Position numbers and translations under genes: made by a program
Notes under the pieces: generated by a model
Databases searched by the model: none
What the model was told of the DNA's origin: nothing
What the model saw: only the letters and a program-made list of their open reading frames with translations
Assembly (NCBI GenBank): GCA_040755515.1
Contig: JBFMAW010000032.1
Span: 3,148-67,147 of the forward strand
DNA length: 64,000 nucleotides
Source: Thermodesulfobacteriota bacterium
GTDB taxonomy: Bacteria > Desulfobacterota > Desulfarculia > Adiutricales > JAGVGV01
Direction of reading: 5' to 3'
Shown: piece by piece, positions 8,731 through 14,696 of the stretch
How positions within the stretch are numbered: the first letter of the stretch is position 1
Layout of the letters: each line of letters starts with the position of its first letter

Positions 8731-10122
8731 ATGGACAGCGACCAATACTTCTGGGACGACCTGATCCAGTTCATCGAGGAAAAGTCGGTCATCCCCATCA
8801 TCGGACCGGAACTCCTAACCCTGGAGATTGACGGCCGGACGACCACGGTCTATCAACACCTGGGCGGGCTGCTGGCCGACAGCCTGCGCGTGCCCCGGGA
8901 CGGTCTGCCGGCCGAGTTCACCCTGTCCGACGTGATCCTGGCCTACCTGGGGACGCCCGGCAGCCGGCGCGAGTTCATGTACCGCCGCATGAGGAGCATC
9001 CTCACCGATACCCCTCTGCCGACGCCCGAACCCCTGCGCCGACTGGCCGGCATCGGCGCCTTCAATCTGTTCGTGACCACGACCATAGATTCCCTGCTCG
9101 AAAACGCCGTGGACGAGGTCAGGTTCCAGGGCCGGAAAATGACCCAGAGCCTGGCTTACACCATCAACGAAATCCGCGATCTGCCGGGCGAGGTCAAAGG
9201 CCTGGCCCAGCCCGTGGTCTTCCACCTGTTCGGACGCATCTCCTCCCAACCCGACTACGTCCTGACCGATGAAGACACCCTCGAGTTCATCCATTCCCTC
9301 CAGTCCGAGACCAGGCGGCCGAGCCTGCTCTTCGACGAATTGAAAAACCACCACCTGCTCCTCCTGGGCAATAACTATTCCGACTGGCTGACCAGGTTCT
9401 TCATCCGGACGGTGCGCAACGAACGCCTGGCCGTGCCCCTGGACCGGGAAGCCATCGTGGTCGGAGACATGGTCTATCGGGAGCAAGGCCTGGTCACCTT
9501 CCTGAGTTCGCCCCTGAGTTACGGGACCAAGGTGCTCGAGGGCGGGGCCGCGGCCTTTGTCCAGGAACTGAGCGACCGCTGGAGAAGTCTGCATCCGGAA
9601 GAAGCGTCGCCGACGGCCGAAGAACCGTCGGCGGCCGAGGAACCGCCGGCCGACCTCGAGGCCCTGCCGGAACTGGTTCAGGGCGGCGTGTTCATCAGTT
9701 ACGCCAGCCAGGACGTGGATATAGTGGAAAAGTCCAAACTCGATCTCGAGGACGCGGGTCTGGACGTCTGGTTCGACAAGCGGCGGCTCGAAGCCGGCGA
9801 CGATTACGACCAGAAGATTCAGCGCAGCATCCGCAAGTGCGCCCTGTTCTGCCCCTTCGTGTCCCGGGCCACGGAAGAGCGCCTCGAGGGCTATTTCCGC
9901 CGCGAATGGCGCTACGCCCTGGACCGGAGCCTGAACCTGGATCAGTCCGTGCCCTTCATCCTGCCCGTGGTGGTTGACGATACCGACCCCTATGCCAGCC
10001 GGACGCCCCTCGAGTTCCAGAAGCTGCAATGGACCCGCTTGAAAAGCGGCCGGCTGCCGGAAGACTTTGTCCGCAAGGTGGTCCAACTCGTTCGGGACTA
10101 CCGCAAGCGGGCCCGAGGCTGA
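8731..10122 (+). CDS. SIR2-like (SIR2_2-type) domain fused to a C-terminal TIR domain; putative NAD-consuming effector
   Basis: 463 aa. The N-terminal blocks IIGPELL, LFVTTTIDSLLENA, VVFHLFG..DYVLTDEDTLEF and LLLLGNNYSDW align by eye with ThsA-type SIR2 blocks (GAG, TTNYD, KMHG, FVGFSFTD). A Pro/Glu-rich linker spans aa 288-316. The TIR domain (aa ~318-445) reads VFISYASQDVD...GLDVWFDKRRLEAGDDY...GYFRREW. Confidence 0.8.
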   Translation: MDSDQYFWDDLIQFIEEKSVIPIIGPELLTLEIDGRTTTVYQHLGGLLADSLRVPRDGLPAEFTLSDVILAYLGTPGSRREFMYRRMRSILTDTPLPTPEPLRRLAGIGAFNLFVTTTIDSLLENAVDEVRFQGRKMTQSLAYTINEIRDLPGEVKGLAQPVVFHLFGRISSQPDYVLTDEDTLEFIHSLQSETRRPSLLFDELKNHHLLLLGNNYSDWLTRFFIRTVRNERLAVPLDREAIVVGDMVYREQGLVTFLSSPLSYGTKVLEGGAAAFVQELSDRWRSLHPEEASPTAEEPSAAEEPPADLEALPELVQGGVFISYASQDVDIVEKSKLDLEDAGLDVWFDKRRLEAGDDYDQKIQRSIRKCALFCPFVSRATEERLEGYFRREWRYALDRSLNLDQSVPFILPVVVDDTDPYASRTPLEFQKLQWTRLKSGRLPEDFVRKVVQLVRDYRKRARG

Positions 10123-10124
10123 CC

Positions 10125-13100: not shown

Positions 13101-14696
13101 ATTCAACAACTTGTTCGTGCGGGCCTGGACTTGAATGCTCCTCTGGCTTCCAAGAAGACGGCTTTGGGGCTGGCCGCCGAACTGGGGCATCCGGACATAG
13201 TGCGCCTCCTGCTGGACAAGGGAGCGGACATCAACGAGACCGACGGTCAAGGCCGGACCGCCCTGGATCGGGCCGTGGTAAAGAACCGCGGGGAAGTCAT
13301 AGGACTGTTGGCCAGGCGCGGCGCCGATCTGGATCAGGCCATCGGCCGGGCCGCAGCCAGGAAAGACCAGGCCGGACTCGAGGCCCTGTTGAAAAGTCTT
13401 CCGACTGTTGACGGGCTCGATTCCGGGGGAGACACGCGGCTGATCAAGGCGGCGGAAAGCGGAGACGTGGACCTGTCGCGGGCCCTGATCGAGGCCGGCG
13501 CCGGCCTCGAAGTCCGTGACCGGGAAGGCAGGACGGCCTTTTTCAGGGCCGCGCTCGGCGGCCGGATTCAAACCTTGTCCTTGCTGTTACAAACCGGCGC
13601 CGACGTGGAAACTCGGGACCTGAACGGCTGGACCGCCCTCCACCAGGCCGCCGCCGACGGACGCCTCGAGGTCTTGAACTTCCTGGTGGAAAACCGGGCC
13701 AACCTTGGATCATCGAGTCGGGACGGGTCCACGCCCCTGGCGGTCGCGGCCCGCAACGGACGCCAGGCCGTGGTCCGGCGCCTGCTGGAATTGGGCCTCG
13801 AGGTCAATACGCGCGACCCGGACGGTTGGACGGTTCTGATGACCGCCGCCGCGGCCGGTCAGACAACGATGGTTGACCTGTTAATGTCCCAAGGGGCTGA
13901 AGTAAGCGCGGCGGACCATAGCGGCCGCACGGCCCTGCACCAGGCCGCGGCCGAGGGACATGACCGGATAGTGGACCGGTTGCTGCAAGCCGGAGCGGAT
14001 ATCAACCGGGCCGACGCCCTGGGCTGGACGGCCGTTCATTACGCCGCCGCCGCGGGCCGGCCTCAAACCCTGGACCGGCTGATCGGGCGGGGCGCCGACG
14101 CGACGGTCCGGACCCGGGACGATCTGACCGCCTTGGACCTGGCGGCGAAAGGCGGACGGACCCAGGCCGCGGAGATGCTCCTGAAGCACGGAGCCAAAGT
14201 TCAGGCTTCGTCCCGAGGCGGCTGGACGGCCCTGCATCACGCCGCCGCGGCCGGACGGACGGAAGTCCTGGTCCCGCTGCTCGAAGCCGGCGGCGACGTC
14301 AAGGCCCGGACCCTGTCCGGCCAGACCGCCTTGCACCTGGCCGCCCTGGGCGGTCACGGCCGGATGGCCCTCTTCCTGCTCGAACGGGGCGTGGACAAGG
14401 ACGCGGCCGACCACCTGGGCCTCACCCCCCTGGCCCTGGCCGCCGGGCAGGGCCATTATGACCTGGCCGGACTGCTGATCGCCCGGGGGGCCGAGGTAGG
14501 TAAGAGAGACCGCCTGGGCTGGACTCCGCTGTTCCAGGCCGCGGCTTCGGGTCGTCCCAATCTGGTCAGGCTGCTGTTGGAACAGGGCGCCGACGTCCTG
14601 GCCGCGGACTCGAACGGCCGAACCGCCCTGGCCCTGGCCCAGGCCAATGGCCATAGGGAAGTGGTCGCTCTCCTGGCGGCCCGCCGGCCGAAATAA
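10125..14696 (+). CDS. STAND-type P-loop NTPase (nSTAND-like), single TM helix, WD40 beta-propeller, ~16 ankyrin repeats
   Basis: I prefer the start at ATG 10125, 2 nt after the upstream stop; the track ORF from 10029 overlaps gene 1. The NTPase has YFFGRDNE...[20 protein letters not shown] (Walker A, nt 10296-10322) and [12 protein letters not shown] (Walker B). A hydrophobic helix [20 protein letters not shown] (nt ~11454-11516) is preceded by [8 protein letters not shown]. WD40 blades ([34 protein letters not shown]) cover nt ~11796-12824. Ankyrin repeats ([27 protein letters not shown] and similar) run from nt ~13071 to the end. Confidence 0.85.
   Translation: [1523 protein letters not shown]

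Follow-up and report, generated by a model that had tools for sequence, protein, structure and literature searches.

A bacterium of the Thermodesulfobacteriota (assembly GCA_040755515.1) carries on contig JBFMAW010000032.1, within the 64,000-nucleotide stretch analyzed here (hereafter the window; coordinates are counted from its first letter), two adjacent genes that form a conserved, translationally coupled module. The first encodes a cytosolic protein uniting a SIR2-like and a TIR domain, and the second a STAND NTPase that continues through a transmembrane (TM) helix into a WD40 propeller and an ankyrin array. With slightly better than even confidence, we read the pair as a membrane-anchored STAND receptor with an outer sensor, coupled to a TIR effector on an apparently dead SIR2 scaffold and serving an immune role. 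More broadly, the two proteins probably constitute an immune or cell-fate receptor, an immune function being what the logic of their domains suggests.

8731..10122, plus strand: gene 1, 463 amino acids (aa), SIR2-like and TIR domains, cytosolic (open reading frame, translation, Pfam)
10125..14696, plus strand: gene 2, 1523 aa, membrane-anchored nSTAND1 NTPase with WD40 and ankyrin C-terminus

Conservation of the Gene Pair

The TGA stop of gene 1 (10120-10122) is separated by two letters, cc, from the ATG of gene 2 at 10125, which is preceded by a GAGG Shine-Dalgarno motif 6 nt to its 5' side. Among gene 2 homologs, the N-terminus lies 15-25 residues ahead of a conserved NPWPGL motif. Since the homolog N-termini and the Shine-Dalgarno motif both agree with 10125, we place the start there, and the ATG at 10029, called in a list of open reading frames (ORFs), was dropped. 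A first-pass annotation of the same DNA had described gene 1 as a 463-aa fusion of a SIR2_2-like and a TIR domain, and gene 2 as a protein of about 1520 aa with its ATG 2 nt past the stop at 10122. Both calls hold: the ORF coordinates are exact, and the protein motifs quoted at the time are present in the translation.

The arrangement is retained well beyond this genome. Of 85 sources, 83 have a homolog of the gene 2 NTPase (phmmer E 1e-70 to 1e-146) immediately 3' of gene 1 and in the same orientation. The exceptions are L060, a locus that stops about 80 nt past gene 1, and L075 (9932-15070), where the homologies fall in frameshifted ORFs, which suggests a pseudogene or an assembly error. The same order is also kept in L085-L090, including the loci of the cultured Tunturibacter psychrotolerans and Paraburkholderia caribensis. 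Thus, the check put forward in the first-pass annotation, co-occurrence of the two genes as neighbors across genomes, came out positive: about 90 loci, drawn from several phyla, are strictly syntenic. The gene 1 stop and the gene 2 start overlap by 4 nt (ATGA) in 54 of the 83 loci, and the pairwise identities of gene 1 and of the NTPase domain are closely correlated (r = 0.976). Three gene 2 homologs with other C-termini (short, CHASE2 and FGE-sulfatase) each have a SIR2_2-TIR_2 gene directly upstream. In L086 (11162-16758), the closest long relative, gene 2 is split near the TM region into ORFs of 570 and 1294 aa. From this genetic association we infer that the two proteins are also physically coupled.

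The gene 1 family is large: clustering at 90% leaves more than 2000 relatives, of which the best 120, at 44-67% identity, all share its two domains and a length of about 460 aa. At E<=1e-30, 962 clusters match in a set of 1.84 billion representatives (clustering at 50% identity), and a scan of one genome per species recovered relatives in at least 507 genomes. The matches listed include Beta- and Gammaproteobacteria, Opitutaceae, Acidobacteriota, Holophagae and Gemmatimonadota, among others, the distribution being patchy over phyla at 45-50% identity. Several metagenome-assembled genomes carry more than one copy of the pair: three of them gave two loci each, and L068 holds two copies within 13 kb. 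In P. caribensis MBA4 the pair is carried on a 2.5-Mb replicon.

Gene 1: A Putative SIR2 Pseudoenzyme Fused to a TIR Domain

Both domains of gene 1 were matched above the Pfam cut-offs (SIR2_2, aa 113-234, 1.2e-10; TIR_2, aa 320-440, 5.3e-20). The AlphaFold2 (AF2) model of the protein, with a predicted local distance difference test score (pLDDT) of 91, resolves a SIR2-type Rossmann domain, a disordered acidic linker and the TIR domain. The linker is the sole low-confidence stretch of the model; part of it is encoded by an 18-nt tandem repeat of 2.4 copies at 9608-9650.

8731..9600, plus strand: SIR2-like domain, aa 1-290, predicted catalytically inactive
9601..9681, plus strand: acidic flexible linker rich in Pro, Ala and Glu, pLDDT <50 at aa 300-310
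9682..10065, plus strand: TIR domain, aa 318-445, with catalytic Glu392 at nt 9904-9906

Foldseek places the SIR2-like domain with ThsA, the Avs5 SIR2-STAND filaments, KomC, SPARSA and DSR2 (probability 1.0), with FAM118B also among the best matches and ThsA being the best match in both structure and sequence. The catalytic residues were mapped by aligning a profile of the SIR2 part of gene 1 to ThsA of Bacillus cereus, and conservation was counted over 114 family sequences. The catalytic asparagine of ThsA, N112 in the motif TTNYD, pairs with T118 of gene 1, a site occupied by Thr in 93 sequences, Ser in 18 and Gly in 3, and never by Asn (114/114). The catalytic histidine, H152 in KMHG, pairs with position 167, which is Leu in 87 sequences, Phe in 24 and otherwise Tyr or Cys, and never His (114/114). 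The nearby H165 was ruled out as a catalytic histidine, the site aligned with that of ThsA being position 167 (Leu or Phe). In ThsA and DSR2, mutation of either the catalytic Asn or the catalytic His abolishes activity. Because both residues are replaced across the family, the domain is most likely not a canonical NADase and probably has a scaffold or ligand-binding role instead. An active SIR2 domain was rejected on this alignment, and with it the earlier proposal of a dual SIR2 and TIR effector. Nevertheless, many polar residues of the domain are invariant (D120, D182, E185, D202 and R226), which suggests a conserved ligand-binding or interaction surface.

The TIR domain presents a different picture. 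Its E392, whose codon had been correctly located at 9904-9906, is invariant in 114 of 114 family sequences and aligns with E77 of the SPARTA TIR-APAZ chains, the closest solved TIR relatives by sequence (E about 1e-8). We thus predict that the TIR domain is catalytically competent.

Gene 2: A STAND Module Followed by a Conserved Membrane Helix

The N-terminal part of gene 2 matches nSTAND1 (PF20703, aa 19-425, 3.9e-29, 102.9 bits against a cut-off of 27.1). An AF2 model of aa 1-520 (pLDDT 92) orders it into nucleotide-binding, helical and winged-helix domains, from which a continuous helix extends.

10179..11333, plus strand: STAND module of nucleotide-binding, helical and winged-helix domains, aa 19-403 (PF20703 and AF2 topology)
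11343..11606, plus strand: continuous helix comprising charged stalk, TM segment and post-membrane helix, aa 407-494 (AF2 secondary structure)

The codon of the Walker A lysine, K64, lies at nt 10314-10316, slightly downstream of the approximate position 10311 assigned to it earlier, and Walker B reads DQFEE at aa 151-155. Residues S60, G61, G63 and K64 of Walker A (GxxGxGK[ST]) and D151-E155 are invariant in 58 of 58 NTPase sequences. Foldseek recovers Cdc6/Orc1, archaeal ATPases and NLRP2/7, the relatives anticipated for a STAND protein, and found no close solved bacterial relative of the module.

The TM segment spans aa 444-466 (nt 11454-11522), with a Kyte-Doolittle peak of 2.84. A single TM helix occurs at aa 406-526 in all full-length partners, as well as in every member inspected, whatever its sensor. 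The 15 residues flanking it contain on average 5.5 Lys and Arg on the N side versus 2.8 on the C side, and the N side is the richer in 53 of 58 partners. Given this bias, the positive-inside rule predicts a cytoplasmic NTPase and an outside C-terminus. The membrane-spanning nature of gene 2, presented earlier as a peculiarity of this protein, turns out to be the defining feature of the family.

A Fast-Evolving Sensor Predicted Outside the Cytoplasm

Beyond the helix, gene 2 of the window consists of two repeat arrays.

11802..13124, plus strand: seven-bladed WD40 propeller, aa about 560-1000, predicted extracytoplasmic
13137..14684, plus strand: ankyrin array of about 15-16 units, aa ~1005-1520, predicted on the same membrane side as the propeller

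Pfam assigns WD40 or beta-propeller matches at aa 680-896, and seven WD-like blades can be counted by direct reading of the translation over aa 555-1000. The ankyrin part is matched by Ank_2 (5.9e-96), with motifs recurring at a 33-aa period from aa 1010 to about 1498, 12 of them strict matches. The composition given in the first-pass annotation (an nSTAND-like P-loop NTPase, one TM helix, about seven WD40 blades and about 16 ankyrin repeats) is thus reproduced by the PF20703 match, the seven blades and the 15-16 units.

This region is by far the most variable of the module: mean pairwise identity is 0.51 for gene 1 and 0.54 for the NTPase, versus 0.22 for the sensor that follows the TM helix. 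Sensor types across the family comprise WD40, TPR, FGE-sulfatase/C-lectin-type, CHASE2 and PF11901, or none that could be assigned, and WD40 is present in only 21 of 61 gene 2 partners. CHASE2 is an established extracytoplasmic sensor domain. Taken together, the conserved TM helix, the charge bias and the CHASE2, FGE and lectin-like variants predict that the variable sensor sits outside the cytoplasm. The earlier view of gene 2 as a STAND sensor and switch is retained as regards its intact Walker motifs and hypervariable C-terminal sensor, but sensing is predicted to occur outside the cytoplasm and not, as in the classical case, in the cytosol. Likewise, the combined WD40 and ankyrin arrays, previously given as a hallmark of the system, are indeed present in gene 2 but typify only the small clade of the window, the WD40-then-Ank architecture being restricted to the window, L001, L085 and L086.

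In a sister clade, the ankyrin array belongs to a protein of its own, which has several TM helices and whose gene directly precedes gene 1.

L005 7900-9765, L007 8127-9953 and L002 7993-10011: multi-TM proteins of the pilus-linked sister clade, ending in ankyrin repeats and encoded just before gene 1

In L007 this gene overlaps gene 1 by 4 nt. Because a loop rich in Lys and Arg precedes the last TM helix, the ankyrin domain is predicted to lie outside in these proteins also. Being fused to gene 2 in one clade and a separate protein in its sister, the ankyrin module is arguably a genuine third part of the system in both.

Proposed Mechanism

The architecture of the pair, its conservation and genetic coupling, the state of the catalytic residues and the topology signals are what the data above show; in the reading that we favor, trigger, assembly, TIR output and immune role are all inferred from them. 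Gene 2 would be an inner-membrane NTPase, with its ATPase, helical and winged-helix domains facing the cytoplasm, a long helix crossing the membrane, and the fast-evolving WD40 propeller and ankyrin sensor in the periplasm or envelope. A ligand would engage the outer sensor, and the signal would run along the stalk and TM helix and allow the STAND modules to oligomerize on the inner membrane face in an NTP-dependent manner. The STAND oligomer could then nucleate assembly of the gene 1 protein, whose SIR2-like domain might form filaments like those of ThsA, Avs5 and KomC. TIR domains juxtaposed in this way would form active NAD+-cleaving or signal-producing sites, the output being NAD+ depletion or a signal derived from ADP-ribose, leading to growth arrest or death of the attacked cell, or to an alarm. 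In the clade of the window, where the sensor is genetically linked to a type IV pilus/T2SS-like apparatus (described below), that apparatus may be what is monitored or what serves as an antenna.

A bolder version of the same idea, which we regard as possible though doubtful, would make the pair a bacterial counterpart of the Toll-like receptors, in which the STAND receptor surveys the periplasm or envelope and signals to TIR on the dead-SIR2 scaffold, phage entry by way of a type IV pilus-like apparatus possibly being guarded in the clade of the window.

Several points weigh against an immune receptor of this design. The 126 immediate neighbors of the pair in 21 sampled loci include many housekeeping genes and few PADLOC matches, mostly to generic domains, and these neighborhoods are not classic defense islands. 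No relatives were found in phage genomes or in the IMG/VR collections, and the family is near-absent from plasmids, where the only match is a 2.5-Mb chromid; carriage of the pair by mobile elements was rejected on these grounds. No adaptor domain common to the gene 1 and gene 2 proteins was identified. The invariant polar residues of the SIR2-like domain may leave room for a non-canonical SIR2-like activity. Finally, a WD40-ankyrin region of about 1050 aa outside the cytoplasm would be unusual, and its topology is predicted.

Genomic Neighborhood and Alternative Explanations

The housekeeping neighbors, the few known defense genes among them and the absence from mobile elements speak at the same time for the main rival, a non-immune and non-lethal transmembrane signaling system. 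Here, an envelope cue would switch the STAND protein and TIR would make a nucleotide messenger, no cell being killed; the targets might be pilus or secretion activity, or else cyclic-nucleotide signaling through a protein often encoded beside the pair. This protein, of about 630 aa, combines TPR-S, MAP3K_TRAF_bd and adenylate/guanylate cyclase domains and was found in 18 loci, usually right after gene 2; among the sampled loci its gene adjoins the pair in 8 of 21. A second recurrent set, a PGDYG protein paired with a SLATT-like protein of two TM helices, appears in 5-7 loci. Examples of these accessory genes (TPR-S/cyclase or PGDYG plus SLATT-like) are as follows.

L012, 14669-16561
L023, 14660-16570
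L014, 14613-16126
L087, 4200-5552 and 10481-11632

The CHASE2-type sensors, typical of signal transduction, and the linkage to pilin and T2SSF genes in two clades, described below, also fit a signaling function. Yet the combination of STAND, TIR, a hypervariable sensor and multiple paralogs per genome is the signature of an immune or conflict receptor. Moreover, conflict-type genes recur next to the pair in related loci: besides TPR-S and SLATT these include TIR-TPR proteins, which adjoin it in Opitutaceae, and patatin and caspases at some loci. Nor is the pair universally accompanied by a dedicated receptor for a TIR product. Non-lethal signaling is, in our judgment, rather unlikely.

A pilus guard would be a clade-specific version of either reading. 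In the window, gene 2 faces a convergent cluster, with 7 nt between its own stop and the end of the last cluster gene.

14704..21265, minus strand: type IV pilus/type II secretion system (T2SS)-like cluster, convergent to gene 2, candidate clade-specific accessory module (Pfam and prepilin motifs)

Besides a TM protein, the cluster encodes a T2SSE ATPase, two T2SSF platform proteins, a pilin and two pseudopilins, one of them degenerate; pilins lie at 15817-16200 and 20864-21265, and the prepilin motifs GFTLVE and GFTLIE are present. The periplasmic WD40-ankyrin region would, according to this explanation, bind pseudopilins or the platform and report perturbation, for example by pilus-dependent phages or blocked assembly, to TIR. 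The entire cluster is kept in L086 (16903-21161), despite a different upstream context. The operon of the sister clade continues past gene 2, in the same direction, with pilin and T2SSF-like genes (L002, L005, L007, L009 and L052), and L002 has PilN/PilO upstream. The sensor is also predicted to reside in the compartment where pseudopili assemble. On the other hand, only about 8 of the 90 loci, belonging to two related clades, show the linkage, whereas most members lack pilus genes nearby, and common ancestry of the neighboring genes could account for part of it. The pilus link was consequently rejected as a family-wide component, and we regard the guard as improbable.

The upstream side of the pair is occupied by a type I-E cas operon, which lies outside the module.

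847..8227, minus strand: type I-E cas operon (cas3, cse1, cse2, cas7, cas5, cas6e; Pfam), neighbor of the module
5510..8227, minus strand: cas3, with Cas3_HD and Cas3 C-terminal domains, divergent from gene 1 across a gap of 503 bp

The first-pass annotation, which had rightly put cas3 at about 500 bp and in divergent orientation, took this proximity to indicate a defense island. Followed through, its version would make the pair a STAND pattern-recognition switch with a dual SIR2 and TIR NADase, and one could add CRISPR supervision by way of a solitary repeat-like element. The domain calls behind it are correct, immune systems under CRISPR supervision are known from type I-C (bioRxiv 10.1101/2024.12.27.630466), and a solitary, half-degenerate type I-E-like repeat does lie between cas3 and gene 1, at 8434-8464. 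Read on the minus strand, its sequence is ...GTTCCCTACGGCGCGGGGATGAACCG, with the 3' arm and the 8-nt handle conserved; 14 nt then follow, and after these a perfect hairpin (8422-8403). This element may be an array remnant or a regulatory stand-alone repeat. However, neither the promoter region (8000-9000) nor the whole window contains a seed plus protospacer-adjacent motif (PAM) target that the repeat could address as a crlRNA or stand-alone repeat unit (SRU): with a seed criterion of >=9/10, the sole match of the repeat-adjacent sequence is itself. The repeat has no Rfam match, and there is no CRISPR array within the window, the true repeat of the array lying outside it. CRISPR-supervised regulation of the pair was rejected for these three reasons. 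In addition, no homolog of the Cas proteins of the window was found in any of 90 related loci, the two closest relatives having TetR/RND efflux genes or an ABC transporter upstream of the pair instead. The type I-E adjacency is therefore unique to the window and incidental to the module, and the defense-island argument, faced also with the mostly housekeeping character of the sampled neighbors, does not hold in the form given. With both SIR2 catalytic residues missing from the whole family and a conserved TM helix that puts the sensor outside the cytoplasm, the CRISPR-associated version is very unlikely.

The AT-rich core of the same intergenic region contains a perfect 9-nt inverted repeat at 8518-8542, CATTTTGTC-N7-GACAAAATG, overlapping a TTGTCA hexamer on the plus strand and a TTGACA hexamer on the minus strand. 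It looks like an operator common to the divergent promoters.

Elsewhere in the window, a low-GC block at 46000-58900 (GC 0.51 vs 0.60-0.66 in the remainder) carries genes for a GntR regulator, a peptide-type ABC transporter, MmgE/PrpD, an MttB-family methyltransferase with its corrinoid protein, and pyridoxal phosphate (PLP) enzymes. Probably this is a metabolic island that was acquired and has nothing to do with the gene pair.

Relationship to Known Systems

In PADLOC-DB v2 and the literature searched, no named system was found that corresponds to the pair. The PADLOC-DB v2 profiles matched only generic TIR and Ank parts and include no model for either core domain arrangement, NCBIfam matched only generic TIR and Ank families, and a full-text search of the literature returned no description of the pair; assignment to a named system was thus rejected, in line with the first-pass annotation, which had recognized none. 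We read the pair as a variant of the STAND-TIR conflict systems, apparently without a name of its own.

The nearest framework is that of the nSTAND1 conflict systems. The work that defined this family describes effectors coupled via fused or shared adaptor domains such as bDLD and EADs (PMC8195603; Kaur, Iyer, Burroughs & Aravind 2021, eLife). As in gene 2, these systems have a PF20703 NTPase, a variable C-terminal sensor of repeat or lectin type, and an NAD-targeting effector; like the pair, they are found in large-genome bacteria, accompanied by TPR-S, SLATT and caspase genes. Unlike them, the gene 2 NTPase starts at the N-terminus without an adaptor, the effector is a separate pseudo-SIR2-TIR protein, and a conserved TM helix is interposed between NTPase and sensor. 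A term search of PMC8195603 found no mention of the pair or of a TM helix.

The Avs (AVAST) systems, with the SIR2-STAND Avs5 and TIR-STAND forms, similarly join a STAND switch to a sensor and an NAD-directed effector, and the filaments of Avs5 share the SIR2-like fold. They are, however, single cytosolic polypeptides with an active effector fused at the N-terminus and a cytosolic sensor for phage proteins, whereas the pair has its effector in trans, with a SIR2 domain devoid of the catalytic Asn and His, and its sensor on the far side of a TM helix. Neither protein was matched by an Avs model of PADLOC. Thoeris, like gene 1, combines SIR2-fold and TIR domains, but on separate proteins, TIR being the sensor or signal maker and an active, SLOG-gated SIR2 the effector; gene 1 instead fuses the two, with a degenerate SIR2 and an obligatory STAND partner. 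Pfam reports no SLOG or Macro domain in either protein, the PADLOC match to ThsB is marginal (E 0.0019 over about 50 aa), and ThsA was not matched. The activation by induced oligomerization that we adopt for the pair is modeled on the TIR NADases of the SPARTA TIR-APAZ and AbTir types, although here there is no APAZ or short Argonaute partner and the activator would be a STAND NTPase.

The layout of an outer repeat or propeller sensor, one TM helix and a cytosolic signaling module is shared with Toll-like receptors, PknD-type kinases and CHASE2 receptors; the TIR output recalls the Toll-like receptors in particular, and one family member itself carries CHASE2. This is an analogy only, with no homology of sensor or TM helix, and in the pair TIR is separate and probably enzymatic instead of an adaptor, with STAND interposed. 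The CRISIS system of type I-C, in which the spacer-like part of a stand-alone repeat unit matches the promoter of the system itself (bioRxiv 10.1101/2024.12.27.630466), resembles the window in having a putative immune operon beside a cas operon and a stand-alone repeat-like unit in the intergenic region, but no promoter target was found here and the cas adjacency is not conserved. Outside sensing by STAND proteins is not wholly new, since a periplasmic placement of the sensor has been predicted for NACHT targets diversified by diversity-generating retroelements (DGR) among STAND conflict proteins (PMC10907252).

Implications

The features that make the pair worth experiments are its transmembrane, outside-sensing architecture and the dead-SIR2 scaffold, both argued from sequence and predicted structure. 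Such experiments are feasible in the cultured carriers T. psychrotolerans and P. caribensis MBA4, and many exchangeable sensor domains are on offer for study. If the pair serves ordinary signaling and not immunity, it would still show bacterial signal transduction employing TIR and STAND modules in a new way.

To our knowledge, the bacterial STAND/NLR-like immune proteins characterized so far (Avs, bNACHT and relatives) all recognize phage proteins within the cytoplasm. If the reading that we favor is true, NLR-type immunity would extend to the cell envelope. The pair would provide a testable bacterial analogue of receptor-to-TIR signaling across a membrane, together with a natural case of a SIR2 pseudoenzyme recruited as a scaffold. 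In the bolder, Toll-like version, the pair would also be the first demonstrated case of a STAND immune system that recognizes attack at or ahead of the envelope and not in the cytoplasm, and the roughly one thousand clusters of the family, with their interchangeable outer sensors (WD40, TPR, FGE/lectin and CHASE2), would amount to a surface pattern-recognition repertoire.

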